Positions 6,489 to 45,025 of a DNA stretch of 64,000 nt are shown in pieces (positions within the stretch are counted from its first letter, which is position 1; the number at the start of each line of letters is the position of its first letter). The DNA is from Bacillota bacterium (GTDB taxonomy: Bacteria > Bacillota > Clostridia > Peptostreptococcales > Anaerovoracaceae): the NCBI GenBank assembly GCA_030530285.1, contig JAUMVD010000001.1, positions 26,273 through 90,272 of the forward strand, in the 5' to 3' direction. Position numbers and translations under genes: made by a program. The notes under the pieces are model-generated. The model did no database searches and had not been told where the DNA came from. It worked only from the letters and a program-made list of their open reading frames with translations.

Positions 6489-7268
6489 CTATTTCGAAAG
6501 ATTGCGGAAGTGTTTGCGGTGCATGTACTTGCGCCGAGGCATTTTGAGCTTGCTAAGGCCACGGTTGTAGATTTTGTAACCCAGAATCCCGGTCCAGTGG
6601 TCTTTTGCTTTGCCTTTTTTCGTGTCTTTGCGCTCGATGCCGGTGGCGGAAATAATCGTCCCGTTCTTGATGGCGTCGATGAAGTCGACGTTGCAGGTGA
6701 TGTCGGCATCGATCTCCGTCCAGGCCATGCCGATGTACTTGCTGCTGTGGGCGTCGGTGCCGGAAGTTCCGGGAAGACCGTATTTGGCTGCCAGCTCCGA
6801 TGCCAGATAGTTAGAATCGTGCTTCTCGCAGGTGTTAAAGACTTCTACGAAATCGATCTGCTCCAGAAGTTTAATGTCCATGAGCTTGAAACCCATGGCT
6901 GAGGATGAGGCAACGCCAAACGGATGCGCCAGTCCGACGATGCCGCCCAGCGAATGGACGAGGCGGATCAGCTTCATGCAGCGCATGCCGCGGATTTTGA
7001 GCAGTTTAGGGTACAGACCGTCCGGAAGCACCACAAGTACATGGCCGGCATCCTTGGTATCGTACTCGATGCCGCAGATGACTGTCATTCCGGAATATTC
7101 GGGCAGATCTCTCATATACGCCCATTTCTTACATGCGCGGTAGCTGTTATGATCGGCGAACATGAAGCCGTCATAACCCAGCATGCGGTATTTACGCAGG
7201 TATTCCGAAAGCGGCACTTTAGAGTCGAATGATCCCTCTTTCGTGTGGCAGTGCAGGTCAAATTTCAA
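6489..7268 (-). CDS. PHP-domain metal-dependent phosphoesterase
   Basis: MKFDLHCHTKEGSFDS at the N-terminus, then FADHNS and GTDAHS histidine motifs. Confidence 0.75.
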   Translation of the reverse strand: MKFDLHCHTKEGSFDSKVPLSEYLRKYRMLGYDGFMFADHNSYRACKKWAYMRDLPEYSGMTVICGIEYDTKDAGHVLVVLPDGLYPKLLKIRGMRCMKLIRLVHSLGGIVGLAHPFGVASSSAMGFKLMDIKLLEQIDFVEVFNTCEKHDSNYLASELAAKYGLPGTSGTDAHSSKYIGMAWTEIDADITCNVDFIDAIKNGTIISATGIERKDTKKGKAKDHWTGILGYKIYNRGLSKLKMPRRKYMHRKHFRNLSK

Positions 7269-7357: not shown

Positions 7358-7747
7358 TTATTTTCTCTTCATTTCTTTAGGGGTAACGCATGTTCCGGAA
7401 GCTCTGGCTACTACGATAGGCTCTTCCAGGAAATCAGCTGCTGAGTCATTGATGTCCTTTCTGGAAACAATGACTTTTCTTGCTTCAAATACCATGTGTC
7501 TTGAAGTGTTACCAATCTTATCTATCTCACCGTATGCTTCGATATAGTCGCCAGCATAAGTCGGTGCCAGGAATTCAACATTGTCATATGCGCAGAAGAG
7601 GCCCTCGTCTCCGTCCAGCTTGATCAGCAGTTCTGTAGCAACATCACCAAAGAGGTGTACCATGTGCGCGCCGTCTACCAGTTCGCCGCCGTAGTGGGCA
7701 TCTTTCGCTGACATTCTGAGTCTTAAAGTTGAAGTGATCTTTTCCAT
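7358..7747 (-). CDS. kal: hotdog-fold protein, probable 3-aminobutyryl-CoA ammonia-lyase
   Basis: 129 aa from the ATG at 7747, which follows AAAGGAG. Size and position beside kdd/kamA/kamDE match Kal of the lysine fermentation pathway. Confidence 0.6.
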
Positions 7748-7799
7748 GTTCAATCTCCTTTTCATTTATACGTTGTTATTTTACCACACTTTTTATTTA

Positions 7800-7817
7800 T
7801 TGCAAAAGCAATGCCAA
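7800..7817 (-). promoter_or_regulatory. sigma-54 (-24/-12) promoter driving kal
   Basis: Reverse strand reads TTGGCAT-TGCTT-TTGCAA, which is TGGCAY-N5-TTGCW with exact spacing, about 50 nt upstream of the kal ATG. Confidence 0.7.
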
Positions 7818-7845
7818 TGGTTTATCATTGAAAATGACAGGAATT

Positions 7846-7861
7846 GAACCGAAAACGGTTC
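7846..7861. promoter_or_regulatory. inverted repeat GAACC-N6-GGTTC (candidate activator site 1)
   Basis: TGAACCGAAAACGGTTCA lies between the kal sigma-54 promoter and the regulator start codon. Confidence 0.5.
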
Positions 7862-7877: not shown

Positions 7878-9950
7878 ATGAACAGTTATGGACTCGACAG
7901 GGTGATATCGCCCAAACAGGTATTTCCGGCATCGGCCTGGGAACTGGACAACAGCAGCGAACTAAAGCCGGGAGAAATGCGCATCGGATTAAGACGCGTG
8001 CACGTTGAGAGCACCAGCTTCAGGCAGATCTGCCAGGAGGCGGCCAACGACGAGGATCTGATCAAAGAAAAGATAAAGGATATTGTCATCCGGCGCGGCA
8101 AGCTCCACAATCCCATTACGGATACGGGCGGTCTGTTCTACGGCTTCATCGAAGAGATCGACAGTCGGTACGAAAATGAAAAAGGCCTGAAGGTAGGAGA
8201 TGAGGTGATCTGCAACGCCTCGCTGGCGGGAGTGCCTTTGTTTATCAACAGTATCACTTCTATCGACAAAACATACCCTCAGTTTGAGGCGGACGGGTAT
8301 GCCATCGCGCTGCCCGGCGTGCCCATCATCAAAAAGCCCGAGGGAATGCCCATGGATCTGCTGCTGTTTACCTTCAACGAGTCCGGGACCATATATAAAG
8401 TAGGCAGAGAAGCGGCGGGCAAGAGCCGGTTTGCCATCATCGGCAATAACATGCTCATGTCGCTGCTCTACGGATACACGGTGAGACAGGCGGCAGGACC
8501 TGACGCGGAGGTCTACTGCGTGCTGGACAGAAACACGGACATCACGATGCAGGGCGATGGACTCAATGAGATCATGGGGCAGGTATTCACCCAGGTTTCC
8601 TACCATAACCTGATGAAACCGGTGGCTTGTCTCAGGAGCTTCAGCAAATATCCCGGCATGGATATGGTGGTGAACTGCGCGGATATTCCCGGTGCGGAGA
8701 CGGTCAGCGTGATGGCCACCAAATCCGGAGGGACCGTTGTATTCGCTAACTTCATCAGCAACTATAATATGGCCCTGTATATCACGGAAGCCATATCCAG
8801 AGATATCCGCATCACCTGCGCCGAAGGGTACCTGGAGGAGTATGACGAGTACGACTTCGAGATCGTGAAGGGCATCGCGCCTTACATCGACGGCGCCATG
8901 GTTCCGAGAAACAAGATGAAGCGCAAAGGCTTCCGGTCGGAGACGGACAAGGCGGTCTTCGATCACTACAACCACTACGATATCTCCGTGGCGGAGGATC
9001 TGGTTGCTGTGAGCAAAAAGATGCACGAAGTTCTGGATGAGATCATGAGCGTATCCCGTTATGACTGCAACGTCCTGATCACGGGAGAAACAGGCGTAGG
9101 TAAGGAAAAGGTGGCGAATATCATACAGAAAAACAGCGCCAGGAAAATGCAGCCGTTCGTCAAGATCAACTGCGCGTCCATACCGCCGAATCTGATGGAA
9201 TCGGAGTTCTTTGGTTATGAGAAAGGCGCATTTACAGGAGCAGACGCGAAGGGCAAACGCGGGTATTTCGAAGTTGCGGAAGGCGGCGTCATCTTCCTGG
9301 ATGAGGTGGGGGAACTGCCTCTTGATATCCAGGCCAAGCTTCTCAGAGTCATCCAGGACGGAGAATTCATGCGGGTCGGCGGCACGAAACCGGTCAAGAC
9401 CAACGTGAGGATTTTATCGGCCACCAACAGGGATCTGGAGGAACAGGTGCGGAACAAAGCCTTCCGAAGGGATCTGTATTACAGGTTGAACGTATTCCCG
9501 ATCAATGTGCCGGCGCTGGACGAGAGGAAGGATGATATCCCGCCGCTGGTGGACAATTTCATCAGGAAATACAACGAGAAATTCGGCATCAATAAGTTTA
9601 TGGACGACGATGCCAAGGATTATCTGGCGGCCCAGAGCTGGCCGGGCAACATCAGGGAATTGGAAAATGTGACCCAGAGACTTATGATCTCAAGTCCCAA
9701 CGACATGATCACGCTGGTCGATGTCATGAAAGAGCTGGGAGGAGACCTGATCAGCGCTGCCGATCTGGACGCGCAGGTCAAGCAGCTGGAGGAAGGAGAG
9801 ATTGGCCTGACCAAGGCGGTGGAGTCATTCGAAAAGGCGATCATACAGAACGCCTGCAAGAAATACGGATCCACCAGAAAGACGGCCAAGGCCATAGGAA
9901 TCTCCCAGACGCAGCTGGTGAGAAAAAAGAACAAATACGAAATAGGATGA
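7878..9950 (+). CDS. sigma-54-dependent transcriptional activator with an N-terminal Kdd-like (3,5-diaminohexanoate dehydrogenase-like) domain
   Basis: AAA+ domain with GETGVGKE, GAFTGA, VIFLDEVGEL and RDLYYRLNV. C-terminal Fis-type HTH STRKTAKAIGISQTQLVRK. Residues ~1-345 align by eye along the full length of the Kdd encoded at 10250. Confidence 0.85.
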   Translation: MNSYGLDRVISPKQVFPASAWELDNSSELKPGEMRIGLRRVHVESTSFRQICQEAANDEDLIKEKIKDIVIRRGKLHNPITDTGGLFYGFIEEIDSRYENEKGLKVGDEVICNASLAGVPLFINSITSIDKTYPQFEADGYAIALPGVPIIKKPEGMPMDLLLFTFNESGTIYKVGREAAGKSRFAIIGNNMLMSLLYGYTVRQAAGPDAEVYCVLDRNTDITMQGDGLNEIMGQVFTQVSYHNLMKPVACLRSFSKYPGMDMVVNCADIPGAETVSVMATKSGGTVVFANFISNYNMALYITEAISRDIRITCAEGYLEEYDEYDFEIVKGIAPYIDGAMVPRNKMKRKGFRSETDKAVFDHYNHYDISVAEDLVAVSKKMHEVLDEIMSVSRYDCNVLITGETGVGKEKVANIIQKNSARKMQPFVKINCASIPPNLMESEFFGYEKGAFTGADAKGKRGYFEVAEGGVIFLDEVGELPLDIQAKLLRVIQDGEFMRVGGTKPVKTNVRILSATNRDLEEQVRNKAFRRDLYYRLNVFPINVPALDERKDDIPPLVDNFIRKYNEKFGINKFMDDDAKDYLAAQSWPGNIRELENVTQRLMISSPNDMITLVDVMKELGGDLISAADLDAQVKQLEEGEIGLTKAVESFEKAIIQNACKKYGSTRKTAKAIGISQTQLVRKKNKYEIG

Positions 9951-9977
9951 AACATGATCATCATTAAAGGAGATTGG

Positions 9978-10011
9978 ATATGCGAACCGATTTTGGTTCG
10001 CATATTTTTTG
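9978..10011 (+). terminator. rho-independent terminator of the activator gene; its stem also contains GAACC-N6-GGTTC (site 2)
   Basis: ATATGCGAACC-GATTTT-GGTTCGCATAT followed by TTTTTT. Confidence 0.7.
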
Positions 10012-10139
10012 CCTTTGAACCGAAAGCGGAGCGCATAGGGCGGCGCCGCCTTTCACGGCGTGCGCGCCTTGACGGAAACAAAAAAATATAACGTGCGGAA
10101 CCCTTGGAGTTTCAACGCCGCAACTTGATTGTTAAGAAA

Positions 10140-10157
10140 TTGGCATACAAGTTGCTT
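10140..10157 (+). promoter_or_regulatory. sigma-54 (-24/-12) promoter of the kdd-kamA-...-atoA operon
   Basis: TTGGCAT-ACAAG-TTGCTT, with GG at 10142-43 and GC at 10154-55. It lies about 95 nt upstream of the kdd ATG. Confidence 0.75.
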
Positions 10158-10249
10158 AATATAGAGACACGTTAAAGCAGCCTTTGTGACAAAGGCGTAG
10201 GCCTTGGCACAAGGCTATCAGATAATTTGTTTTAGGAGGAATTAGAAAC

Positions 10250-11317
10250 ATGAAACACGGAAGCCCTTACGGAACACACAGAGTTATTTCACCAAAAGGC
10301 GTACTGCCACAGCCTGCAGATGTCATCGACAACACGATGGAAATCTATGACAACGAAGTTCTGATCGACGTACAGACACTGAACATCGACTCAGCTTCAT
10401 TCACAGAGATCGTCAGAAGATCATGTGACGGCAAGAAGCCTGTTGACATCGACAATTCACCTGAAGATCAGGAAAAAGTTAAGAAGACAATGATGGAAAT
10501 CGTTGCCAAGGCCGGTAAGCACAAGAACCCTTGGACAGGTTCCGGCGGCATGCTGATCGGTACAGTTAAGGAAATCGGACCTGCTTACGAAGGCGACCTG
10601 AAGGTTGGCGACAAGATCGCAACTCTGGTTTCACTGTCACTGACTCCGCTGGTAATCGAAGAGATCCACGAAATGAGACCTGGAATCGATCAGGTTGACA
10701 TTACCGGACAGGCAATCCTCTTCCAGAGCGGTATCTATGCAGTACTTCCGGATGATATGCCGGAAGGTCTGGCACTGTCAGCACTGGACGTTGCAGGAGC
10801 TCCTGCACAGGCTGCGAAACTGTCACACCCTGGCGACACGATCCTGGTTATCGGCGGCGGCGGCAAGTCAGGTCTTCTCTGCCTGTATGAAGCAAAGAAG
10901 AGAGCTGGCGTAACCGGTAAGGTAATCTGCGCTGCAGGTTCACAGAAATCAGAAGACAGAGCCAGAAATCTGGATCTGGCAGACGAATACTTCCACATGG
11001 ATGCAACGGATGCAGTCGGAATGTATGAGAAGATCATGGAGCTGACTGACGGCAAACTGTGTGACGTTGTTATCAACTGCGTAAACATCCCGAACACAGA
11101 AATGGCATCCATCCTTTCCTGTAAGGATGACGGCGTAGTTTACTTCTTCTCAATGGCAACTGACTTCACAAAGGCAGCCCTGGGCGCAGAAGGCGTTGGC
11201 AAGGACGTAAACATGATGGTAGGAAACGGATACACCAAGGGCCACGCAGCAATCACTCTGCAGGTTCTCAGAGAGCACGAAGGCATCAAGAAGCTCTTTG
11301 AAGAAATGTATGCGTAA
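10250..11317 (+). CDS. kdd: L-erythro-3,5-diaminohexanoate dehydrogenase
   Basis: 355 aa with Rossmann loop VIGGGGKSGLL. It sits directly upstream of kamA, and strong SD AGGAGG precedes the ATG. Confidence 0.75.
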   Translation: MKHGSPYGTHRVISPKGVLPQPADVIDNTMEIYDNEVLIDVQTLNIDSASFTEIVRRSCDGKKPVDIDNSPEDQEKVKKTMMEIVAKAGKHKNPWTGSGGMLIGTVKEIGPAYEGDLKVGDKIATLVSLSLTPLVIEEIHEMRPGIDQVDITGQAILFQSGIYAVLPDDMPEGLALSALDVAGAPAQAAKLSHPGDTILVIGGGGKSGLLCLYEAKKRAGVTGKVICAAGSQKSEDRARNLDLADEYFHMDATDAVGMYEKIMELTDGKLCDVVINCVNIPNTEMASILSCKDDGVVYFFSMATDFTKAALGAEGVGKDVNMMVGNGYTKGHAAITLQVLREHEGIKKLFEEMYA

Positions 11318-11374
11318 GCGAGCCGCTTAAATCAAGTTGAGTAGTTTTACCAAATCGATGAAAAGGAGATAAAC

Positions 11375-12634
11375 ATGGCTATTAGAAATTGGAAAGACAT
11401 TCCTCTCTTCAAGGATGTAACAGAGGAACAGTGGAACGACTGGCATTGGCAGGTCGCGAACAGACTGGATTCAGTAGAAAAGATCAAGCAGGTTGTGAAC
11501 CTTACTCCTGAAGAAGAGGCAGACATTGCTAAGGTTATGAACGGCTTCAGAGTTGGCATCACTCCATACTACGCTTCACTGATGGATCCTGATGATCCAC
11601 ACTGCCCGGTAAGGATGCAGGCGGTTCCTACACTCGCTGAAACTCACAGAGCAGAATCAGATATGCTGGACCCTCTTCACGAAGATGAAGACTCCCCGGC
11701 ACCTGGACTGACTCACAGATATCCTGACAGAGTTCTCTTCCTGATCACAGACCAGTGCTCCATGTACTGCAGACACTGTACGAGAAGAAGACTGGCAGGA
11801 GAAACTGATGGCGCCAGAAGCATGGACGACATCAATGCATGTATCGAATATATCCGTAAGACTCCTGTAGTAAGAGACGTTCTCCTCTCAGGCGGCGATG
11901 CGCTTTGCGTTGAGACTGACGTTCTCGAATACATCATCAGCGAGCTGAGAAAGATCGATCACGTTGAGATCGTAAGAATCGGATCCAGAACTCCTGTCGT
12001 TATGCCGCAGAGAATCACAGATGAGCTTTGCGATATGCTGAAGAAATATCATCCGATTTGGCTGAACACTCACTTCAATCACCCGAAGGAATTCACTCCG
12101 GAATCAGCAGAAGCATGCAGGAAGCTGGCAGACGCAGGAATTCCGCTCGGAAACCAGTCAGTACTCTGCAGAGGCATCAATGACGACGTACATGTCATGA
12201 GAAATCTGGTTCAGCTCTGCTGCAAGAACAGAGTTCGTCCGTACTACATTTATCAGTGCGACCTGTCACTGGGTATTGAACACTTCAGAACTCCTGTCGC
12301 AAAGGGCATCGAGATCATCGAAGGACTCAGAGGTCACACATCAGGTTATGCGGTACCGACATTTGTCATCGACGCTCCCGGCGGCGGCGGCAAGACTCCG
12401 GTAATGCCGCAGTATGTCATTTCACAGACTCCTGATAAGGTTATCCTGAGAAACTACGAAGGCGTTATCACGACTTACACCGAGCCGTCCAACCTGCCTC
12501 CGCTTCAGTGCAGCTACGAGAACTGCAAGAACATCGAAGATTATCACTATGAAGGTGTTGCAGGACTGGCACAGGGCGAAAGAATGTCAATGGAACCGGC
12601 TCATCTGCTGAGACACGAAAGAAACAAGAAATAA
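11375..12634 (+). CDS. kamA: L-lysine 2,3-aminomutase (radical SAM, PLP)
   Basis: CSMYCRHCTRRR cluster motif, LLSGGDAL, and a typical 419-aa length. Confidence 0.9.
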   Translation: MAIRNWKDIPLFKDVTEEQWNDWHWQVANRLDSVEKIKQVVNLTPEEEADIAKVMNGFRVGITPYYASLMDPDDPHCPVRMQAVPTLAETHRAESDMLDPLHEDEDSPAPGLTHRYPDRVLFLITDQCSMYCRHCTRRRLAGETDGARSMDDINACIEYIRKTPVVRDVLLSGGDALCVETDVLEYIISELRKIDHVEIVRIGSRTPVVMPQRITDELCDMLKKYHPIWLNTHFNHPKEFTPESAEACRKLADAGIPLGNQSVLCRGINDDVHVMRNLVQLCCKNRVRPYYIYQCDLSLGIEHFRTPVAKGIEIIEGLRGHTSGYAVPTFVIDAPGGGGKTPVMPQYVISQTPDKVILRNYEGVITTYTEPSNLPPLQCSYENCKNIEDYHYEGVAGLAQGERMSMEPAHLLRHERNKK

Positions 12635-12638
12635 TTAA

Positions 12639-13649
12639 ATGTACCTATTAGAAGAATTATCACAGAAATACAAGAGAATATCTATAGTCGGCATGGCGAA
12701 AAACGCCGGCAAGACTACAGCGCTGAATTACCTTATAGAGGAGGCCATGGACGAAGGCATCGCCCTGGGCGTCACTTCTACAGGCAGAGACGGCGAAGGA
12801 ACAGATGTTGTCACGGGTACTGACAAACCTCGTGTATTTCTGGATACAGACACTATCGTATCGGTGCCAACACAGCTTTATGAGCTGGCAGACGCCGGCC
12901 TGGAGATCGTTAAGATGACTGAATACGGCTCGTCACTGGGGCAGATCATGCTCTGCAGAGTTGTCAGCAGCGGATACGTGCAGGTAGCAGGGCCGGTAAT
13001 CAACGCGCAGCACATCAAGATGTGTGAAGAAATGATCCGGTTAGGTGCCCAGCTGGTGCTTATAGATGGTGCGATAGACAGGAAATCTATCGCGGCACCG
13101 GGGACATCGGATGCGATAATCCTGTCCACAGGAGCGGTTTTATCGAGAAAAATGAGCAGAGTCGTAGAGGAGACGGCGCATACCGTCAACCTCTACCGCC
13201 TGCCTTGTCTCGAGGATGGACGGGAGAGAGAATTATTGACCGGAGAGAGCGAAAATATCCTCCTGATCAGGGATGGGGAACTGGTGGCCCTCGATCTGAA
13301 CACAGGCCTTGGCGCAGGGAGATTCCTGGACGCCAAGATCGATGATAAGGTCAGCCACATCTATGTTCCGGGGGCGTTTACACAAAGCATTGTTTCGGAC
13401 ATCAATCCTAAGAAATTAAAGAACGTCACATTCGTGCTCAAAGATCCTACGAAGATCTTTATCGGAGCTACGATGTGGAATCAGTTCAGAAAAAAGGGAC
13501 TTACGGTAAAGGTGCTCGAAAATATCAATGTTGCAGCGATCACAGTAAACCCCACATCGCCGGGAGGCTATTCGTTCGATCATGAAAGTTTGCTGAACGC
13601 CATGCAGGAAGCGATTCCGGATATACCTGTTCTGGATGTACGTATGTAG
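12639..13649 (+). CDS. P-loop NTPase of unknown function embedded in the kam operon
   Basis: Walker A VGMAKNAGKTT near the N-terminus. Tightly packed between kamA and the MutS-like gene. Confidence 0.6.
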   Translation: MYLLEELSQKYKRISIVGMAKNAGKTTALNYLIEEAMDEGIALGVTSTGRDGEGTDVVTGTDKPRVFLDTDTIVSVPTQLYELADAGLEIVKMTEYGSSLGQIMLCRVVSSGYVQVAGPVINAQHIKMCEEMIRLGAQLVLIDGAIDRKSIAAPGTSDAIILSTGAVLSRKMSRVVEETAHTVNLYRLPCLEDGRERELLTGESENILLIRDGELVALDLNTGLGAGRFLDAKIDDKVSHIYVPGAFTQSIVSDINPKKLKNVTFVLKDPTKIFIGATMWNQFRKKGLTVKVLENINVAAITVNPTSPGGYSFDHESLLNAMQEAIPDIPVLDVRM

Positions 13650-13658
13650 GAGACCGAG

Positions 13659-15296
13659 ATGTCTATAGCTGTAAAGAGACTGGCAAATCAAAAGACAAGA
13701 CGTGAAACAGGGCTGGACTATGTCGTTTCCGCCATGAATCTGCTGACTCCCTTTGGAAGCAAGCAGATCAAAGAGCAGAAGCCGTTTTTCCCGGGGCAGG
13801 AGGGAGCCCTGGAAGAAGAGCTTTTGCGCGTAGAGAAGATGGTTGATACGGCGGAAGCGAACAGCAGAGAAATAGGCGTGCTGCAGGAAACATTCATGAT
13901 GTTAAAGGACAACACCTTCACCATCGAGAGAAGTGAGAATTCGGTGCTGTCCGTCGTAGAGATCTTTGAGATCAAAAATCTGCTGCTGCTGATGGAGAAA
14001 ATCAGAGGCATCAGCGGCAGGATAGAATTGCCTGGCGAATTCGTGCCCGAAGATGTGACCGAGCTGCTGGACGTGCTCGATCCGGGCGGAGATAGGCTCA
14101 ATACCTTTTACATTTATGATTCTTTTTCCGAGAAGCTTGCGGAGCTCAGGAAAGAAAAGAAGCAGATGGACAGGGAAATCAGAGTCAGACAAAAGGCGCT
14201 GAAATCAGAGATCCAGAAAACGTATGGCTTGGTGCTCACACCCAAATTCGATATCACCGTATCGAGGAGCGACGAAGCCGGTATAAAAATGATAGAAGAG
14301 ATTTCCGATTTGACGAAATCGGATGAAGACTATATGTCAGTAACCTACACTCTCGTGCCCGGCGAAGACGTTCAGGAGCTTTTGCGAAAATCGGACGATA
14401 TTTCGGCGGACATTGAGGAAGAAGAGCTGAGAGTGCGGGAAATACTGTCAAAGGAAATCCACAAACATGCAGAACTGCTTCTGGACAATTGCGATCGGAT
14501 CGGCAAGCTGGACATCGTTCTGGCAAAGGCTTTGTACGCCATATCGCATCACTGCGTACGCCCTGAGATCGTCCGGGAGCACGTGGTGGAATTTACGGAC
14601 GGCAGGCATCTGCAGGTAGAAGAGATCATCAAGAAAAAAGGCGGGGAATACTGCCCCGTTAGTATATCTCTAAGTGATGGGGTAACATGCATTACGGGAG
14701 CCAATATGGGGGGAAAGACCATTTCGCTGAAACTCACCGGAATGGTCGCCATCCTGGCTCAGTACGGATATTTCGTCCCGTGCAAAAGCGCGCGGGTAGG
14801 TCTCAGCAATTTCATGCAGATACTGATCGGGGACAGTCAGTCGATCGAGAGAGGACTCTCCAGTTTCGGAAGCGAGATGGAAGAACTGAAGGAGATCATG
14901 GACAACAGCACGGACAGATCGCTTTTGCTCATCGATGAGATCGCCAGCGGAACAAATCCGGTAGAGGGACTGGCGCTCACGAAGAGCATCGTTGACTATC
15001 TCAAAGGCAAGGCGTTCATCTCCCTGATCACCACTCATTTCGAGACGGTGACGGCGGATAAGGACGTCGTCAATATGCAGGTCACGGGACTTGCGAATGT
15101 GGATTTCGACAAACTAAACAGGGAGATCAGGTACGCAAACAGGCGCGAGAGGATCGGGATCATCCAGAAGTACATGGATTACCGCCTGACGCGGGTTGAC
15201 GACGCTGCCGAGATCCCTAAAGATGCCTTGAACATAGCGAAGATGCTGGGCATCGATGACAGCATTATAGAAAAGGCAAAACAGTACATAGTTTAA
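13659..15296 (+). CDS. MutS-family ATPase (domain V only; no mismatch-binding or Smr domain)
   Basis: ITGANMGGKTISLK (Walker A), LLLIDEIASGTNPVEG (Walker B/signature), TTHF. The N-terminal ~300 aa are helical and charged. Confidence 0.75.
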   Translation: MSIAVKRLANQKTRRETGLDYVVSAMNLLTPFGSKQIKEQKPFFPGQEGALEEELLRVEKMVDTAEANSREIGVLQETFMMLKDNTFTIERSENSVLSVVEIFEIKNLLLLMEKIRGISGRIELPGEFVPEDVTELLDVLDPGGDRLNTFYIYDSFSEKLAELRKEKKQMDREIRVRQKALKSEIQKTYGLVLTPKFDITVSRSDEAGIKMIEEISDLTKSDEDYMSVTYTLVPGEDVQELLRKSDDISADIEEEELRVREILSKEIHKHAELLLDNCDRIGKLDIVLAKALYAISHHCVRPEIVREHVVEFTDGRHLQVEEIIKKKGGEYCPVSISLSDGVTCITGANMGGKTISLKLTGMVAILAQYGYFVPCKSARVGLSNFMQILIGDSQSIERGLSSFGSEMEELKEIMDNSTDRSLLLIDEIASGTNPVEGLALTKSIVDYLKGKAFISLITTHFETVTADKDVVNMQVTGLANVDFDKLNREIRYANRRERIGIIQKYMDYRLTRVDDAAEIPKDALNIAKMLGIDDSIIEKAKQYIV

Positions 15297-15309
15297 AAGG
15301 AGAAAAAGG

Positions 15310-16866
15310 ATGAAAAGCAAACTGAACCTGGACCCTAAAAAGGTTGATCATGCTCGAAACAGCGCTGCCAAGATCGCTAAGAGCATGCAGGAATTCATCG
15401 ACAGGCACACTACAGTAAGTACGGAGAGAACCATTCTCAGACTTCTGGGTGTTGACGGTGTCGATGAGGTAGATACTCCACTGCCGAATGTGGTAGTTGA
15501 CCAGATCCTCGATGCGGGCGGCCTGCCAAGGGGTGTTGCGTATTGGATTGGAAATGCTATGATCCAGACCGGCAAAGAGCCGCAGGAAATAGCTGAGGAA
15601 ATGGCCGCAGGTAATCTGGACGTGACGAAGCTGCCGCTGGCTTCAAAGGAAGAAGCGGAAGCCAAGATCATGCCTAAGGTACACGAAGCATTAAAGACTA
15701 TCAGGGCACAGACAGAGAAACGAAATGAGTATCTGGCCACTATCGGAGAAGGCAGAAGGCCGTATCTGTATGTAATCGTTGCTACAGGTAATATCTACGA
15801 AGACGTCGTTCAGGCACAGGCTGCGGCGAGACAGGGCGCTGATATCATCGCCGTTATCAGAACCACCGCGCAGTCACTGCTGGACTACGTTCCTTATGGA
15901 CCTACGACTGAAGGTTTCGGCGGCACATATGCCACGCAGGAAAACTTTAGAATCATGAGAAAAGCGCTTGACGAGGTTGGTGAAGAAGTCGGCAGATATA
16001 TCAGACTTTGCAACTACTCATCAGGAATGTGCATGCCTGAAATCGCTGCAATGGGAGCTATCGAGAGACTGGATGTCATGCTCAATGACGCGCTCTACGG
16101 AATCCTGTTCAGAGACATCAACATGCAGAGAACACTGGTAGACCAGTACTTCTCCAGAGTCATTATCGGTTACTGCGACATTATCTTCAACTCAGGTGAA
16201 GATAACTATCTGACTACAGATGACGCGTATGAAAACGCGCATACCGTTCTGGCGTCACAGCTGATCAACGAACAGTTCGCCGTACTGGCAAACGTTAAAG
16301 AAGAGCAGATGGGTCTCGGCCACGCCTTCGAGATGGATCCGGATATCGAGAACGGATTCCTCTATGAACTGGCACAGGCCGTCATGGCCAGGGAGATCTT
16401 CCCGAACGCTCCTCTGAAGTACATGCCTCCAACGAAGTACATGACAGGAAATATCTTTAAGGGCAATGTACAGGACGCGCTGTTCAACATGATCGCGATC
16501 TGGTCAGGACAGTCACTGCAGCTTTTGGGTATGCTGACAGAAGCCATCCACACACCGCATATGCATGACAGATACCTCTCCATCGAAAATGCGCAGTACA
16601 TTTTCAACAATATGAGAGATATCGGATCAGAAGTGGAATTCAAAGAGGGCGGTATCATCCAGTCCAGAGCGCAGCTCGTACTGGACAAGGCGGATAAGCT
16701 CCTGGAAGAGATCGTCGAAGAAGGTCTGTTCTCAACAATTGAACAGGGTAAGTTCGGCGGAGTCAAGAGACCTAGAGATGGCGGAAAAGGACTCAGCGGC
16801 GTTTGCGTCAAGGATGACGAGTACTTCAATCCGTTCATTCCACTCATGTTAGGAGGTGCAGAATAA
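15310..16866 (+). CDS. kamD: lysine 5,6-aminomutase alpha subunit
   Basis: 518 aa TIM-barrel-type sequence, immediately followed and overlapped by the B12-binding subunit gene. Confidence 0.8.
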   Translation: MKSKLNLDPKKVDHARNSAAKIAKSMQEFIDRHTTVSTERTILRLLGVDGVDEVDTPLPNVVVDQILDAGGLPRGVAYWIGNAMIQTGKEPQEIAEEMAAGNLDVTKLPLASKEEAEAKIMPKVHEALKTIRAQTEKRNEYLATIGEGRRPYLYVIVATGNIYEDVVQAQAAARQGADIIAVIRTTAQSLLDYVPYGPTTEGFGGTYATQENFRIMRKALDEVGEEVGRYIRLCNYSSGMCMPEIAAMGAIERLDVMLNDALYGILFRDINMQRTLVDQYFSRVIIGYCDIIFNSGEDNYLTTDDAYENAHTVLASQLINEQFAVLANVKEEQMGLGHAFEMDPDIENGFLYELAQAVMAREIFPNAPLKYMPPTKYMTGNIFKGNVQDALFNMIAIWSGQSLQLLGMLTEAIHTPHMHDRYLSIENAQYIFNNMRDIGSEVEFKEGGIIQSRAQLVLDKADKLLEEIVEEGLFSTIEQGKFGGVKRPRDGGKGLSGVCVKDDEYFNPFIPLMLGGAE

Positions 16867-17636
16867 TGGCAGAATGCAACACAGCAGTAGCTCAGATCGA
16901 TCTGACGAAAGTAAAGCCATATGGCGACACGCTTAACGATGGTATGACAGAAGTTGCTTTCACGCTTCCTGTACCTTACGGTGATGAAGCGAATGAAGCG
17001 GCAAAGATCCTGGCGAAGAAGATGGGACTCGATGAGCCTAACGTAGTATACGCCAAGGAAATGACAAAGGAATACACATTCTTCGTAGTATACGGCAAAT
17101 GCCAGCATACGGTTGACTACACTACCATTAAGGTAGCAAAGGTTGACGTAGATGTGATGGATAGGTTAGAATGTGCTGAGTACATTAAAGAAAATATCAA
17201 GAGACCTGTAGTGATCGTCGGCGCATCCACCGGTACAGACGCGCACACGGTAGGTATCGACGCGATCATGAACATGAAGGGCTTCCACGGCCACTTCGGT
17301 CTCGAAAGATATGAAGGCATCGAAGCATACAATCTGGGTTCACAGGTTCCAAACGAAGATCTTATCGCAAAGGCCAAGGAAGTACATGCGGACGCGATTC
17401 TGGTTTCACAGACGGTTACACAAAAGGATATCCACATCGAAAACCTGACCAACATGGTTGAACTCCTCGAAGCGGAAGGCATGAGAGATAAGGTCATTCT
17501 GGTTTGCGGCGGTCCTAGAATATCGCATGAACTGGCTCAGGAACTGGGTTATGATGCGGGTTTTGGTCAGCATAAGTACGCAGAAGACGTAGCGTCATTT
17601 GTTCTGACTGAAATCGTGAACAGGAATATGATTTAA
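16866..17636 (+). CDS. kamE: lysine 5,6-aminomutase beta subunit (B12- and PLP-binding)
   Basis: Cobalamin DxHxxG motif GTDAHTVGID. ATGA overlap with kamD. Confidence 0.8.
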   Translation: MAECNTAVAQIDLTKVKPYGDTLNDGMTEVAFTLPVPYGDEANEAAKILAKKMGLDEPNVVYAKEMTKEYTFFVVYGKCQHTVDYTTIKVAKVDVDVMDRLECAEYIKENIKRPVVIVGASTGTDAHTVGIDAIMNMKGFHGHFGLERYEGIEAYNLGSQVPNEDLIAKAKEVHADAILVSQTVTQKDIHIENLTNMVELLEAEGMRDKVILVCGGPRISHELAQELGYDAGFGQHKYAEDVASFVLTEIVNRNMI

Positions 17637-17665
17637 GCTATTCTAAAGAAGAAAGGTAAAGTAAT

Positions 17666-18391
17666 ATGTTCAACAAGATTTTAACAGCTGATGAAGCGGT
17701 AGCTGGCGTAGAAGACGGCATGACCATAATGGTCGGTGGATTCCTCGGCACAGGCTCACCTGAGGTTCTCATGGACGCGCTGGTAAGAAAGGGCGTCAAG
17801 CACCTGACTGTCATTGGTAATGACGGCGGACTGGCTGAGGGTCAGCCTGCAGGAGAATTTGCAGGCAAAACTCCGAGAGGCATCGGTAAGCTTTTGGAAA
17901 ACCATATGGTAGATCACGTCATCATGTCACATGTAGGTGTAAACCCGAGACTGAATGAACAGTTTGCAGACGGCAGCCTGAAGTACACACTGGTTCCACA
18001 GGGCACTCTGGCAGAAAAGATCAGAGCCGCGGCATACGGCCTGGGCGGAGTCCTCACTCCGGTAGGTCTGGGAACGCCGATGGAAACGGAACTGGATGAG
18101 CTGGGCAGAAAGAAAGAAGTCATGGTTATCGATGGTAAGAAGTACCTCTTCGAAAGACCTCTTCACGCGGATTATTCGTTCATCAGAGCAACTATGGCTG
18201 ACAAATTCGGCAACTATATGTGTTCCAAGGCAACGAGAAACTTTAACCTCGTCATGGCCGGAGCAGCAGACCACACCGTTATCGCAGCAGAGAAACTGGT
18301 CGAAGTCGGATCCGTTGATCCTGACATCTGGCAGGTAGCCGGAGTACTGGTTGAGTCTATCGTGGAAGGAGAACCAAAATGGCAGATTTAA
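17666..18391 (+). CDS. atoD: acetoacetate/butyrate CoA-transferase subunit A
   Basis: MTIMVGGFLGTGSPE N-terminus typical of 3-oxoacid CoA-transferase A subunits. Confidence 0.75.
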   Translation: MFNKILTADEAVAGVEDGMTIMVGGFLGTGSPEVLMDALVRKGVKHLTVIGNDGGLAEGQPAGEFAGKTPRGIGKLLENHMVDHVIMSHVGVNPRLNEQFADGSLKYTLVPQGTLAEKIRAAAYGLGGVLTPVGLGTPMETELDELGRKKEVMVIDGKKYLFERPLHADYSFIRATMADKFGNYMCSKATRNFNLVMAGAADHTVIAAEKLVEVGSVDPDIWQVAGVLVESIVEGEPKWQI

Positions 18392-19035
18392 AAGCAAGAA
18401 TCGCAAAGAGATGCGCGAAGCACTTCAAAGATGGTGACTTCATCAATCTGGGAATCGGCCTTCCGACTATGGTAGCGGATTATCTTCCTGAAGACGTTAT
18501 CATCACCTGCCATTCCGAGAACGGATTTGCAGGCATCGATATCCTGGCTGACCAGGAAACACTGGATGTTAATATCATCAATTCAGGCGGACAGTACGTA
18601 ACAGCGCTGCCAAGAGCCAAGTTCTTTGACACAGCAGAGAGTTTCGGCCTGGTTAGAGGCGGACACGTAAAGGCTACCGTTCTGGGCGCTATGGAAGTTG
18701 CCGAAAACGGAGACCTGGCAAACTGGATCGTTCCTGGCAAGAAAGTTGCCGGAATGGGCGGAGCCATGGACCTTTGCGTAGGATGTCCTGAAGTAATCAT
18801 CACCATGCTTCACACACAGAAGGGCAACCACAAGATCAAGAAGGAATGCACACTGCCGCTGACTGCAGAAAAGTGCGTAACAAACATCATCACAGAGATG
18901 GCAGTGATGAAAGTTACCGACGAAGGAATCGTAGTAACGGAACTGCACCCTGACTACACTAAGGAAGAAGTTCAGGAAGCAACCGGCGTTGAACTGATCT
19001 GGTCACCTGATCTGAAGCCTTACGATGAGACCTGA
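18379..19035 (+). CDS. atoA: acetoacetate/butyrate CoA-transferase subunit B
   Basis: Catalytic-Glu motif CHSENG. Overlaps the subunit A gene. Confidence 0.75.
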   Translation: MADLKARIAKRCAKHFKDGDFINLGIGLPTMVADYLPEDVIITCHSENGFAGIDILADQETLDVNIINSGGQYVTALPRAKFFDTAESFGLVRGGHVKATVLGAMEVAENGDLANWIVPGKKVAGMGGAMDLCVGCPEVIITMLHTQKGNHKIKKECTLPLTAEKCVTNIITEMAVMKVTDEGIVVTELHPDYTKEEVQEATGVELIWSPDLKPYDET

Positions 19036-34291: not shown

Positions 34292-35827
34292 ATGCTGAAA
34301 GAAAAAATTGTTTACCGGGACGAGCTTCCAATTAATGTAATTACAGCCAATATCGAAGAATATCCGATACACTTCCATGATGACATGGAGGTCGTATATG
34401 TTTTGGACGGCAGCATCACGCTCAGGAACGGATATTATACCTACGCACTGAAGCAGGGCGACATCTTTATCCTGAACGACAGAGAAATGCACAGCTTCGA
34501 AAGTACCGGCGAAGACAACATGGTCATGATGCTCCAGATGGATCTGTCATATTTCTCAAGGTACTATGATAATCTGAAGAATAATTTCTTTGTTACCGAC
34601 ATGGAGGATGACAGCGACGAGAGTCTGGACGTTCTTAAGAATATCCTGGCGAGGATCATGATGGAAGTCCTCCAAAAGGGATACGGATACGAACATAAGG
34701 TCATTGAGAGTACCCATAACCTCATCGCCTGCCTCATGTCAGACTTCCAGTATTTCGTGATGGAGGATGGCAAGTTCAAGAACGAATCCAAGAACAAAGG
34801 CAACAAAATCCTGGCCGGAAGGCTCAACCGCATCACAGATTATATGTACGACAACTATAACAGGAAGCTTACGCTCAGCGAGATCGCTGACAGGGAGCAC
34901 CTGAGCATTTACTATCTGTCTCATATCATAAAGGAAGCCACGGGACTCAGCTTCCAGGATCTGCTCAGCTATATCAGAGTGGAAGAGTCGGAGAAGCTTT
35001 TGCTCGGCACGAATAAAAAAATCGGGGCTATCGCTGACGAGACGGGGTTCTCCGCCGTCAGATACTATATCAAGCATTTCGAAAACTGGTTCGGCATGCA
35101 TCCGCTGGAGTACCGAAAGAAATATATCGGCAAGATCATCAGCAGGGAAATCGAAGCCAAATATACCAGATGCAGTCCGGCCAGCATAGAGGAAGCCATC
35201 CGAAGTCAGGTCAAAGGCGTTTATGCCGACTACGCGGATAAACTGAAGATCAAACCGGTCATCGTCGACGTCGATGTTTATGACGATTACGCGGAGGTCA
35301 AAAAAGGCGAGCCTGAGCTGGCGGAAATCATGAACAGAAGCGTCAACAGTATTTTGGCTCAGCCGTATAACACGCTGATGAGCATGGGAGAAAATCTGAT
35401 CGCTTCCGGCAGCAAATATGTAGTAACGACGAAGTGTCAATATCCGGGCGCGCTGACCAGTCTCAGCATTTTGGTTTACAATTTCGACGACAATGTCATC
35501 AAAGCGTTAAAGAGAATCGGAACCAGCAGCGACCTTTTGAGAATCGTGAAAAACTATGAAGGAGAGTCTGAATTTCTTATCAGGTGCACGGGCATGTCAG
35601 GAGAGTTCAGAGTGCTCAGATACAGGCTTGACAGCGACAACATTATTAAGCAAATAGAAGAAAACGGCCGTGAAAAAGAAGAAGAAACGGTACGTGAAAT
35701 GATCATCAACAAAATGCTTACAGAGCCTGCAATCAGCTCCGCCACATACACCAGCTCGGACGCCATGAGCATCAGAAGTATCTTTAAGGGAGTGGGCGCC
35801 GAACTGATCATGATAGACAGCAAATAA
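34292..35827 (+). CDS. AraC-family regulator (cupin + HTH_AraC + long C-terminal extension)
   Basis: Cupin-like N-terminus, AraC HTH LSEIADREHLSIYYLSHIIKEATG...FSAVRYYIKHF, and a ~230-aa C-terminal domain. Confidence 0.8.
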   Translation: MLKEKIVYRDELPINVITANIEEYPIHFHDDMEVVYVLDGSITLRNGYYTYALKQGDIFILNDREMHSFESTGEDNMVMMLQMDLSYFSRYYDNLKNNFFVTDMEDDSDESLDVLKNILARIMMEVLQKGYGYEHKVIESTHNLIACLMSDFQYFVMEDGKFKNESKNKGNKILAGRLNRITDYMYDNYNRKLTLSEIADREHLSIYYLSHIIKEATGLSFQDLLSYIRVEESEKLLLGTNKKIGAIADETGFSAVRYYIKHFENWFGMHPLEYRKKYIGKIISREIEAKYTRCSPASIEEAIRSQVKGVYADYADKLKIKPVIVDVDVYDDYAEVKKGEPELAEIMNRSVNSILAQPYNTLMSMGENLIASGSKYVVTTKCQYPGALTSLSILVYNFDDNVIKALKRIGTSSDLLRIVKNYEGESEFLIRCTGMSGEFRVLRYRLDSDNIIKQIEENGREKEEETVREMIINKMLTEPAISSATYTSSDAMSIRSIFKGVGAELIMIDSK

Positions 35828-35939
35828 GTACAGTAATAAAGCAAATAGCTCATTGCAAACCCCAAGTGAAAGGACTATCATTTAAACAGATTGAATAAAA
35901 TAACACTGATGTAGTTATTAGATTTTGGAGGTAACACTA

Positions 35940-37226
35940 ATGAAATTACTTATTATCGGAGCAGGCGGAGTTGGAACGTCAGCTGCTAAGATCATCCAGA
36001 GAGCTGGAGCAGATGCAGATTGGGCAGAAAAGGTCGTCGTATCAGACTACGATCTGAAGAGAGCTGAGAAAGTTGCTAACGAGATCTGCGGCGGCGGCAA
36101 GTTTATACCTGCACAGATCAATGCTATGGATGCTGAGAGCATCAAGAAAGTGGTAAATGAACACGGCTGCGATTTCGCGATGAACGCATGTGACCCTAGA
36201 ATGAATGCGACTATTTTTGATACATGCCTGGCACTGGGAATCGGATATCTGGATTGCGCTATGACACTGGGAACTGAGCACCCTGAAAAGCCATATGAAC
36301 TGACCAACATCAAGCTCGGTGACTATCAGTTTGCTAAGCAGAAGGAATGGGAAGCTTCCGGCAAGATCGCGATCTGCGGATCAGGTGTTGAACCTGGAAT
36401 GGCAGACGTTTTCGCGAAGTACGCTGCTAAGCACCTGTTCGATAAGATCGACAGAGTTGACGTACGTGACGGCGATAACTACGGAAATACTGATTCCGAC
36501 TTTGGTTTCTCAGTATGGACAACCATCGAAGAATGCTTACAGCCACCTGTAATCTGGGAAAAGAACGAAGAGTTCCCTGAAGGTCACTGGTTCTGCACAC
36601 CTCAGTTCTCAGAGCCTGAAGTATTTAACTTCCCTGGCGGCATTGGCGACGTAGAAGTTGTTAACGTAGAGCACGAAGAAGTACTGCTGGTACCGAGAGA
36701 AATCGATTGCAACAGAGTAACATTCAAGTATGGCGTACCTGCTGATTTCAGAGCTAAGCTGATGGTACTGTTTGAGTATGGTCTCTCAGACAAGAGAACG
36801 AAGATCAAAGTCGGCGACAGCGAGATCACTCCAAGAGATTTCGTATGTAAGGTAATACCTTCACCGGTTGACGCAACGATGACGATGACTGGTAAGGGCT
36901 GCGCCGGTACTTGGGTAACCGGATGGAAAGACGGCAAGTACAGATCAGTATATCTGTATCAGGTCGCTGACAACCAGGAATGCATCTCCAAGTACACTAC
37001 AAACTCAGTCGTTGCACAGACTGCAGTAGGTCCTGTCATCATGATGGAACTCATCGCTAAGGGCATCTGGAATGAAGCCGGAGCATGGGGTCCTGAGCAC
37101 TTCGATCCAGATCCGTTCGTAGAAAGACTCGCGAAGTATGAATTCCCTGCAGGAATCAAGGAAATGGATTCAGAATATGCTGATGAACTGAACGAGAAGG
37201 CATTTCTTGACGCAGTAAGCAAATAA
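35940..37226 (+). CDS. saccharopine dehydrogenase-family NAD(P)-dependent oxidoreductase
   Basis: The ATG at 35940 lies 8 nt after GGAGG. Rossmann loop LLIIGAGGVGTS and a 428-aa length typical of Sacchrp_dh N+C domain proteins. Confidence 0.7.
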   Translation: MKLLIIGAGGVGTSAAKIIQRAGADADWAEKVVVSDYDLKRAEKVANEICGGGKFIPAQINAMDAESIKKVVNEHGCDFAMNACDPRMNATIFDTCLALGIGYLDCAMTLGTEHPEKPYELTNIKLGDYQFAKQKEWEASGKIAICGSGVEPGMADVFAKYAAKHLFDKIDRVDVRDGDNYGNTDSDFGFSVWTTIEECLQPPVIWEKNEEFPEGHWFCTPQFSEPEVFNFPGGIGDVEVVNVEHEEVLLVPREIDCNRVTFKYGVPADFRAKLMVLFEYGLSDKRTKIKVGDSEITPRDFVCKVIPSPVDATMTMTGKGCAGTWVTGWKDGKYRSVYLYQVADNQECISKYTTNSVVAQTAVGPVIMMELIAKGIWNEAGAWGPEHFDPDPFVERLAKYEFPAGIKEMDSEYADELNEKAFLDAVSK

Positions 37227-37253
37227 GAAAAACTTACACTTTCATCAACTCAT

Positions 37254-37285
37254 AAAGAGCCGCTTTTGTAAAGCGGCTCTTTAAT
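37254..37285 (+). terminator. rho-independent terminator
   Basis: AAAGAGCCGCTTT-TGT-AAAGCGGCTCTTT followed by AATT. Confidence 0.7.
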
Positions 37286-37351
37286 TGTACGCTTTAATGT
37301 GCTAAAATATTTCTGGGAAGAGCGCTTCCCGGAAAGGGAGTATAGTAAGAA

Positions 37352-39133: not shown

Positions 39134-39173
39134 TGCAAGGAAATAAACCAGAATTGCAAGCTGATTATAGAAA
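39134..39173 (+). promoter_or_regulatory. conserved 40-nt operator/promoter-like element, copy A (upstream of the GRE gene)
   Basis: GCAAGGAAATAAACCAGAATTGCAAGCTGATTATAGAAAT aligns without gaps to copies B and C. GCAA half-sites are 21 nt apart, followed by TTATAGAAA. Confidence 0.6.
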
Positions 39174-39176
39174 TGG

Positions 39177-39219
39177 ACCGCGTTTGAAAGTAACATTAAC
39201 TTAAGAGAACGCGGTTTTT
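39177..39219 (+). terminator. terminator-like hairpin between element A and the GRE start codon (AraC terminator or leader attenuator)
   Basis: ACCGCGTT (39177-84) pairs with AACGCGGT (39208-15) across a 23-nt loop, followed by TTTTTC. Confidence 0.45.
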
Positions 39220-39250
39220 CATTGCTTTAGATATAACGGAGGTGTTTGTT

Positions 39251-45019: not shown

Positions 45020-45025
45020 CTAATA

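Follow-up and report, generated by a model that had tools for sequence, protein, structure and literature searches.

How is the fermentation of lysine to butyrate switched on in Clostridia? The question is raised by a locus within a stretch of 64,000 nucleotides from a Bacillota bacterium of the family Anaerovoracaceae (GenBank assembly GCA_030530285.1, contig JAUMVD010000001.1, forward-strand positions 26,273 to 90,272), analysed here at its full length and referred to below as the window. The locus encodes a sigma-54-dependent activator, or enhancer-binding protein (EBP), recognised as such in a first-pass annotation made from the sequence alone. Its gene lies inside a lysine-fermentation cluster: kal stands on one side and kdd-kamABCDE-atoDA on the other, with sigma-54 promoters on both sides. 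In the literature that we searched we found no account of what turns this pathway on in Clostridia, and regulation is not discussed in the paper on the conversion of lysine to butyrate by Intestinimonas. We consider it likely that the protein is the pathway-specific sigma-54 EBP of the lysine-to-butyrate cluster and that it senses through a pseudoenzyme derived from Kdd, the L-erythro-3,5-diaminohexanoate dehydrogenase of the pathway.

The first-pass annotation had described residues 1 to about 345 of the activator as colinear with the Kdd encoded some 300 nt downstream. A BLASTP comparison of residues 1-361 with the 355-residue Kdd (10250..11317) yielded a single colinear alignment of 344 columns with 26% identity and 45% positives (E=1e-36), in which all four of the peptide pairs quoted as examples are present; the gap between the two genes measures 299 nt. 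When all sequences in the Protein Data Bank were searched with phmmer, the matches were 3,5-diaminohexanoate dehydrogenase (3,5-DAHDH) entries only (7dl3, 7dl0 and 7dl1), with E values from 2.6e-29 (7dl3) to 1.6e-27 and covering residues 4-330. On the NCBIfam model NF052381 (Lys_ferment_KDD) the activator scores 120.9-122.4 bits, which is significant but falls short of the equivalog cutoff of 200 bits; the true Kdd next to it reaches 244 bits. An AlphaFold2 model of the sensor, computed from 37 sequences (pLDDT 82, pTM 0.83), retrieved the Kdd structures 7dl0, 7dl3 and 7dl7 in Foldseek at E=3e-25 to 1e-23 with TM-scores of 0.66-0.79. The match to chain 7dl0_B (E=3e-25, TM 0.78) extends to the overall 3,5-DAHDH fold, and the next-best medium-chain dehydrogenases appear at about 1e-10, some fourteen orders of magnitude weaker. 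Since BLASTP, NCBIfam, phmmer and the AlphaFold2/Foldseek comparison agree, the homology between activator and Kdd is real, far beyond chance. The Pfam library that we scanned, which did not contain the KDD_N model, produced no match in residues 1-370; the name KDD_N (PF26370) for this domain comes from precomputed labels on homologues.

The remainder of the protein is that of a complete EBP. The GAFTGA-bearing AAA+ module said to be fused to the sensor was readily recovered (PF00158, E=7e-69), with GAFTGA at residues 450-455 and complete Walker motifs. A helix-turn-helix (HTH) is present at the C-terminus, as annotated; its assignment to the Fis type needs a small correction, the best model being HTH_50 (PF18024) and the Fis-type HTH_8 match being weak. 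The best NCBIfam match of the AAA+/HTH region is PrdR, and no PAS domain was matched by Pfam in the activator. The protein thus combines an AAA+ domain with Walker A and B, the GAFTGA loop and a C-terminal HTH, and -24/-12 promoters stand at the neighbouring genes. The coordinates of all these elements are collected in Table 1.

Table 1. The activator gene, its domains and motifs, and the flanking targets and control elements (window coordinates, position 1 being the first nucleotide)
Feature	Position	Strand	Basis
kal, 3-aminobutyryl-CoA ammonia lyase, divergent target gene	7358..7765	-	NF052388 Lys_ferment_KAL, 186.8 bits (cutoff 160)
Candidate sigma-70 promoter of activator gene, TTGCAA-17-TATCAT, weak	7800..7828	+	Consensus match alone
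Sigma-54 -24/-12 promoter of kal, TGGCATTGCTTTTGCA	7801..7816	-	Consensus scan, <=1 mismatch
Candidate upstream activating sequence (UAS) palindrome GAACCGAAAACGGTTC, kal side, between kal promoter and activator ATG	7846..7861	.	Exact GAACC-N6-GGTTC
Sigma-54-dependent activator (EBP), 690 aa	7878..9950	+	Open reading frame translation, Pfam and NCBIfam scans
Kdd-like sensor domain (KDD_N plus degenerate Rossmann), residues 1-345	7878..8912	+	BLASTP, NCBIfam, phmmer, AlphaFold2, Foldseek
RGKLHNPITDTGG loop, pattern RGKxHNPxTxxGG, residues 73-85, common to Kdd enzymes	8094..8132	+	Column conservation
Degenerate dinucleotide-binding loop IIGNNMLMSLL, residues 187-197	8436..8468	+	Alignment with enzymes
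Linker, residues 346-375, weakly conserved	8913..9002	+	pLDDT <50 at 341-361; orthologue mean identity 44%
AAA+ sigma-54 interaction domain, residues 376-542	9003..9503	+	PF00158, E=7e-69
Walker A, GETGVGKE, residues 403-410	9084-9107	+	Motif position
GAFTGA sigma-54 contact loop, residues 450-455	9225-9242	+	Motif position
Walker B, IFLDEVGE, residues 472-479	9291-9314	+	Motif position
AAA+ lid domain, residues 549-621	9522..9740	+	PF25601, E=2e-20
C-terminal HTH DNA-binding domain, residues 641-689	9798..9944	+	PF18024 HTH_50, E=2.6e-12; HTH_8 weak
14-bp hairpin with T tail enclosing candidate UAS palindrome GAACCGATTTTGGTTC (9984-9999)	9976..10007	+	Pattern and hairpin scan
Degenerate second candidate UAS copy GAACCGAAAGCGGAGC, 2 mismatches, 33 bp from first	10017..10032	.	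Pattern scan
Sigma-54 -24/-12 promoter of kdd operon, TGGCATACAAGTTGCT	10141..10156	+	Consensus scan, <=1 mismatch
kdd, true L-erythro-3,5-diaminohexanoate dehydrogenase, loop VIGGGGKSGLL intact	10250..11317	+	NF052381, 244 bits
kamA (lysine 2,3-aminomutase), kamB and kamC (5,6-aminomutase reactivase subunits), kamD and kamE (5,6-aminomutase alpha and beta)	11375..17636	+	Pfam, NCBIfam
CoA-transferase subunits A and B (atoD/atoA-like), end of conserved operon	17666..19035	+	PF01144, synteny

A second claim of the annotation was that the glycine-rich loop of the dehydrogenase is degenerate in the regulator. The sensor was aligned by MAFFT with 7dl3, the Kdd of the window and a set of 62 Kdd-like proteins that stand alone, and residue columns are given below in 7dl3 numbering. 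The degeneracy persisted in this alignment: where the window Kdd has VIGGGGKSGLL and 7dl3 has IIGANGKSGIL, the regulator reads IIGNNMLMSLL. The enzyme loop conforms almost invariably to G-x-(x)-G-K-[SA]-G (among the 62 proteins, G199 is found in 100%, G202 in 98%, K203 in 84% and G205 in 97%), and the corresponding residues of the regulator are GNNMLMS. Seven further positions that are invariant or nearly so in the enzymes (Q22, D49, F296, M298, T300, F302 and G321) are all replaced in the window protein. In the beta-5 segment the FFSMATSF motif is rewritten in the sensors, with N in place of T300, Y in place of F302, and other residues at F296 and M298. The activator therefore departs from the Kdd equivalog in its NF052381 score, in its G-x-(x)-G-K-[SA]-G loop and at the enzyme-invariant residues. 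These replacements strongly suggest that NAD(P) binding has been lost in the regulator.

Other positions have fared differently. Enzymes and sensors have in common R12, E38, S52, R83, G84, K85, N88, T91, G94, G95, G99, D268, E280, G291 and E310, for the most part charged or polar residues. Conservation of R12, E38, S52, R83, K85, N88, T91, G94-95, D268, E280 and E310 is at least 83% in each group and mostly 89-100%. Within the RGKxHNPxTxxGG segment, retention of the R, G, K, N, T and GG positions is at least 89% among enzymes and at least 83% (mostly 94-100%) in both groups of fusion proteins described below; its low pLDDT suggests that the segment is probably mobile. In the 7DL3 enzyme, E310 hydrogen-bonds the amide of NADPH and G323 lies 3.8 A from that amide (PMC9902596). 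Both residues are kept in the sensor, as E304 and G317. Because of this, although the diphosphate-binding loop is gone, part of the pocket, at its nicotinamide end, may have been preserved and put to a new use.

Is the arrangement peculiar to this protein? An exhaustive HMMER search of 1.84 billion representative sequences, with the N-domain as query, returned 645 proteins at E<=1e-3. Among the best 150 of these were at least 21 full-length proteins (clusters at 50% identity; 679-717 aa), all of which join a Kdd-like N-domain to an AAA+ domain. Their precomputed Pfam labels read KDD_N (PF26370), Sigma54_activat (PF00158), AAA_lid_14 and HTH_50, and the window protein fits this layout, with the Kdd-like N-domain followed by AAA+ and HTH in about 680-720 aa. 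Databases name the fusions just 'sigma 54-interacting transcriptional regulator' or 'TyrR'. The glycine-rich loop is gone in 15 of the 21 representatives and in the window protein (16 in all), and is kept wholly or partly in the other six, as GAGGRSG, GASGRIG, GAEGKIG, GASEKVG, GASSKMG and GADNRGG. In a neighbour-joining tree (341-column alignment, 100 bootstraps) the loop-less fusions form a clade with 99% support; support is 93% for all fusions but one and 47% for all fusions. The loop-keeping proteins are placed between the enzymes and the loop-less clade. In the latter, G202, K203 and G205 are kept in 0% of members and the seven enzyme-invariant residues listed above are replaced in 94-100%, D49 being changed to E in 94% and V178 also to E; the replacements at 178, 296, 298, 300, 302 and 321 are common to both fusion groups. 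These patterns would be read most simply as a fusion that arose once, long ago, and a later disappearance of the cofactor loop from one of its lineages.

The tree also bears on the annotation's phrase "a degenerate copy of the pathway enzyme Kdd". The sensor is indeed a full-length homologue with a degenerate loop; it comes from an old, widespread family maintained by selection, however, and is neither a recent duplicate of the neighbouring kdd nor one in decay. Recent duplication of the adjacent gene was rejected on account of the 26% identity and of the tree, in which the window Kdd clusters with 7dl3 and the sensor lies well apart, in the separate 99%-bootstrap clade. Conservation among close relatives was assessed in a genome scan that gave 31 related loci (L001-L031), from species-level genomes of uncultured Bacillota labelled Candidatus Copromorpha, Lentihominibacter (a member of the Anaerovoracaceae) and similar. 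The order kal (-), activator (+), kdd-kamABCDE-atoDA is found in all 31 as far as the contigs reach, with kal divergent to the activator in 28. Mean identity among 30 orthologues is 70% for the sensor (range 63-83%), 80% for AAA+, 73% for the HTH and 44% for the linker. Since the sensor is so much better conserved than the linker, and 117 of its 345 residues are invariant, these comparisons indicate that it is under purifying selection and is no decaying relic. The loop of these orthologues reads GNN(M/P/T/A)(L/M)M(N/S) or ANNV(I/M)MA, so that the first glycine, too, is gone in 11 of the 30.

Two sigma-54 promoters link the activator to its presumptive targets. A scan of the window with the pattern TGGCAC-N5-TTGCW, allowing up to one mismatch, found only two sites in 64 kb, both flanking the activator and placed and oriented for kal and kdd. 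They lie 36 nt upstream of the divergent kal and 94 nt upstream of the kdd start codon, the latter opening an operon (kdd-kamA-kamB-kamC-kamD-kamE and two CoA-transferase subunit genes) that spans 10250-19035. In the related loci a -24/-12 element is conserved before kdd in 28 of 28 cases and before kal in all 28 loci holding that gene. Matching palindromes accompany the promoters. The sequence GAACC-N6-GGTTC has just two perfect matches in the window, at 7846-7861 and at 9984-9999, the second some 150 nt upstream of the kdd promoter. Next to kal, a single copy recurs at the same place in nearly all 31 related loci; next to kdd, the related loci usually have a pair spaced by 32-33 bp. The 55 perfect copies in 477 kb of these loci all fall within the same two intergenic regions. 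The consensus is (T/C)GAACCG-(A/T)4-CGGTTC(A/G), and both promoter regions of the window carry TGAACCG-N4-CGGTTCA. This is the expected signature of an enhancer bound by the activator HTH, and we regard the palindrome as its candidate site.

The hairpin at 9976-10007 probably does double duty as terminator of the activator gene and as enhancer site. A role for the palindrome as terminator only was rejected: its core recurs 5' of the activator gene and again 32-33 bp away, and its arms are conserved in sequence over the 31 genomes while the spacer varies. On the other side, the sigma-70-like promoter at 7800-7828 would place the kal-side palindrome just past the start site, a position compatible with autorepression. 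At 10098-10113, with the kdd -24 element 28 nt further downstream, there is a third palindrome-like site, GAACCCTTGGAGTTTC, that has one mismatch; it may be due to chance or act as a weak proximal site.

Some further features of the cluster may be recorded here. In the kdd 5' leader (10172-10216), downstream of the sigma-54 promoter, a conserved GTTAAAG is followed by a pair of short neighbouring hairpins or palindromes, GCCTTTG..CAAAGGC and GCCTTG..CAAGGC. These recur in about a dozen related loci and are absent from the short leaders of L003 and L005 (Copromorpha/Lentihominibacter-labelled) and L011 (Oscillospiraceae-labelled). RNAalifold covariation is weak (2 of 8 pairs) and they have no Rfam match; they could be an RNA element or a second operator. 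A search of the whole window against Rfam at gathering thresholds gave no match, neither a lysine riboswitch nor any other known leader. In two related loci (L007 and L009, from horse-faeces and other metagenome-assembled genomes) kamB is followed by kamD without the intervening kamC, the gene for the MutS-like ATPase of the 5,6-aminomutase reactivase; kamC is kept in the other loci whose contigs extend that far. A gene for a PHP/CehA-type metallohydrolase (6489-7268, minus strand) lies directly downstream of kal. Because it is present in few of the related loci (L002, L004), it is probably outside the conserved regulon.

Where the wider fusion family occurs, a point that the annotation had left to be surveyed, was judged from neighbouring genes identified with NCBIfam equivalog scores. 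Basal members adjoin kal, kdd and kce, and some loop-less members adjoin other genes. The loop-keeping protein of Intestinimonas massiliensis is found with kal, kdd, kce and a TRAP transporter, and a sigma-54 site precedes kdd in the Intestinimonas-type cluster representative (P0104, locus L032). A Peptoniphilus-type locus, also loop-keeping, comprises the activator, kal, kce and a TRAP transporter and has a perfect sigma-54 site; a third such locus has the order activator, kdd, permease, kce, kal. In the Intestinimonas- and Peptoniphilus-type loci, kce is within the regulated operon. Among the divergent loop-less members, two lie next to a gene for a HemL-like class-III aminotransferase, in one case with an amino-acid permease and a sigma-54 site; others adjoin a DcuC transporter, an NhaC-type antiporter, or NicX and peptide-transporter genes. 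No convincing sigma-54 site was seen near the divergent members at L038, L039 and L041. The fusion design recurs in many gut Clostridia, including Intestinimonas. Two other Kdd-like proteins of unusual make-up were encountered: P0193, 1063 aa, in which the Kdd-like part is followed by an AMP-binding (adenylating) domain, and P0210, 442 aa, in which the N-terminal part of Kdd is joined to the C-terminal half of KamD and which may be a gene-call or assembly chimera.

Tentatively, the family can be read as a stepwise series from enzyme to sensor, in which a Kdd paralogue became fused once to an EBP, one descendant lineage lost the cofactor site and turned into a pure receptor for small molecules, and this receptor was later re-tuned to new amino compounds and operons. 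The latter would be those of the HemL-like aminotransferase with its permease and of the DcuC- or NhaC-type transporters. The loop-keeping regulators of the Intestinimonas and Peptoniphilus type may need NAD(P)(H) together with substrate, or may even turn the substrate over.

We propose the following mechanism for the window protein. The HTH would bind TGAACCG-N4-CGGTTCA, at a single copy next to kal and at two copies next to kdd that are separated by about three helical turns, and the AAA+ ring would use ATP to open the sigma-54 promoters of kal and of kdd-kamA-kamB-kamC-kamD-kamE-atoD-atoA. The N-terminal 345 residues would act as a pseudoenzyme, an ancient Kdd paralogue that has kept the two-domain dehydrogenase fold and the substrate-side residues and has lost the dinucleotide loop. 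By analogy with EBPs in general, this domain would hold the AAA+ domain in an inactive state as long as no signal is present. That signal would be a small molecule lodged in the cleft between the catalytic-type and Rossmann-type halves, presumably a diamino or keto-amino acid of the pathway, and closure of the cleft upon binding would free the AAA+ domain for hexamer assembly. As ligand we rank first, with some hesitation, the Kdd substrate 3,5-diaminohexanoate, because the gene contexts of basal members share kal, kdd and kce rather than kamA; the keto product 3-keto-5-aminohexanoate, beta-lysine and lysine come after it. An intermediate of the lower pathway thus seems a better candidate than lysine itself. 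In the numbering of the regulator, the conserved cationic residues R8, R73 and K75 and the anionic E33, D262, E274 and E304 would suit a ligand that bears a single carboxylate together with one or two ammonium groups.

Several observations weigh against this proposal. The retained E310 and G323 are contacts of the NADPH amide in the enzyme, so that the lost cofactor site and the kept substrate site are not neatly divided. Clade members that adjoin unrelated genes keep the RGK...GG loop as well, and this loop may have a general structural or signalling role rather than one in recognition of 3,5-diaminohexanoate. On the DNA side, the distal kdd-side palindrome is also a good intrinsic terminator. 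In tblastn searches with two BKACE proteins, neither the window nor any of the 31 related loci gave a kce, so that only part of the regulon is in view, and rpoN is not within the 64-kb window.

Other functions of the N-terminal domain were considered alongside sensing of a pathway intermediate. The domain might detect the Kdd enzyme itself through the dehydrogenase oligomer interface, with free or substrate-bound Kdd titrating the activator in a manner resembling DhaR with DhaK/DhaL. Retention of the whole Kdd fold in the Foldseek comparison would suit such an interaction, as would the fact that the target operon begins with a true kdd, both in the window and among several basal members of the family; yet members of the clade occur in loci without a nearby kdd and the sensor is only about 26% identical to its neighbour, and we find partner sensing unlikely. 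Alternatively, the domain could still bind NAD(P)(H) and work as a Rex-like redox sensor that couples lysine fermentation to the NAD(P)H pool. The Rossmann half is retained structurally at high pLDDT, the nicotinamide-amide contacts persist as E304 and G317, an acidic D217 at the end of beta-2 is invariant among orthologues, and basal family members keep the glycine-rich loop. However, bulky residues have taken the place of the second and third loop glycines and of the lysine throughout the 99%-bootstrap clade, window protein included; with the first glycine lacking in 11 of 30 orthologues as well and the beta-5 motif rewritten, cofactor sensing seems quite improbable.

If the N-domain received no signal and served only for scaffolding or dimerisation, the activator would be constitutive or controlled by its own expression alone, for which the palindrome downstream of the sigma-70-like promoter offers a candidate autoregulatory layout. 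Such a role hardly accounts for the strong conservation of polar and charged cleft residues held in common with the enzyme, which goes beyond the needs of a scaffold, and N-terminal domains of this size are regulatory in known EBPs (PMC6615313); we regard it as very improbable. Finally, colinearity with Kdd over its full length could point to a bifunctional trigger enzyme that still oxidises 3,5-diaminohexanoate. With the cofactor loop lost, many enzyme-invariant residues replaced, an NCBIfam score far under the equivalog cutoff and a separate intact kdd next door, we give this possibility hardly any credence.

How does the proposed ligand-sensing pseudoenzyme compare with regulators already described? 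The closest functional counterpart is KamR of Bacillus thuringiensis, a sigma-54 activator of kamA with a PAS sensor (Zhang et al. 2014, J Bacteriol; PMC4428206). Both are EBPs whose genes adjoin that of a lysine 2,3-aminomutase with a -24/-12 promoter, and KamR activates kamA, but KamR carries PAS where the window protein carries a Kdd-like domain, and its context is the Bacillus kam/yod locus as opposed to a full fermentation cluster. Sigma-54 control of kamA has been noted as a trend in Bacilli (PMC12316311). A survey of clostridial sigma-54 regulons recognised 39 EBP groups with about ten kinds of N-terminal domain, namely PAS, GAF, HPr, PrpR_N, ACT, CBS, Fer4, Fe-hydrogenase-like, V4R and RR (PMC6615313); neither lysine/kam genes nor a dehydrogenase-like domain appear among the EBP groups in its main text and supplement. 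PrdR and OrdR, EBPs of amino-acid catabolism in that survey, resemble the window protein in being one-component regulators beside Stickland or fermentation operons with palindromic enhancers nearby; they differ in that no surveyed group covers lysine/kam and none has a dehydrogenase-like N-domain. Kdd itself (3,5-DAHDH; PDB 7DL3, 7DL7; NF052381; PF26370) shares with the sensor a two-domain fold over about 330 residues (TM up to 0.79), the RGKxxNPxTxxGG loop and R12, E38, S52, D268, E280 and E310, whereas the sensor is fused to AAA+/HTH, is without the G-x-x-G-K-S-G loop and is sub-cutoff on NF052381, and so does not count among the enzymes of that family.

That a paralogue of an enzyme can be taken over as an effector domain is well established, MocR/GabR, ROK repressors, Rex and NmrA being examples. 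In MocR/GabR proteins a GntR HTH is joined to an aminotransferase-fold domain, likewise a catabolic-enzyme paralogue turned to effector binding; the fold is different, the output is that of a sigma-70 repressor or activator, and MocR keeps its pyridoxal phosphate whereas the cofactor site of the window sensor looks lost. Rex and NmrA also use a dehydrogenase-type fold for regulation and not catalysis, but in them dinucleotide binding is kept as the signal, whereas the window protein is without the binding loop and keeps the catalytic (substrate) domain. A MocR-type regulator (GntR HTH plus aminotransferase-fold domain) happens to be encoded in the window at 50207-51613 (minus strand), a second and classical enzyme-derived sensor. 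The full-text literature on sigma-54, lysine fermentation, Kdd/KDD_N and kamA yielded no publication on a Kdd-like EBP sensor, and none is described in PMC6615313, PMC4697335, PMC3149608, PMC4428206, PMC12316311 or PMC9902596; the only related items were the PAS-type KamR of Bacillus and the remark on sigma-54 control of kamA in Bacilli. The principle of an enzyme-derived sensor is thus known; this sensor, its family and its circuit were not found described in the literature searched.

Elsewhere in the window, at 34292-42561, two AraC/cupin regulators and a saccharopine-dehydrogenase-like gene come before the genes for a glycyl-radical enzyme (793 aa; PFL-like and Gly_radical) and its radical-SAM activase; two amino-acid permeases (43544-46510) come after them. 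The group has the look of a further island of amino-acid catabolism.

Bacteria in the gut reach butyrate by four routes, of which lysine fermentation is one, with Intestinimonas as its best-known agent. The present finding supplies a concrete candidate circuit for this route, made up of an activator, two sigma-54 promoters, an enhancer motif and a candidate inducer, and adds the medium-chain-dehydrogenase fold to the known sensor domains of EBPs. The loop-keeping and loop-less members form an unusually clear natural series in which to study the passage from enzyme to receptor, and the domain could act as a biosensor for beta-amino acids, which are targets of 3,5-DAHDH engineering. If the stepwise reading is true, the family would represent an unrecognised and evolvable class of sensor domains for beta- and diamino acids, of use as a scaffold for biosensors, and such sensors would control the production of lysine-derived butyrate in gut Clostridia.

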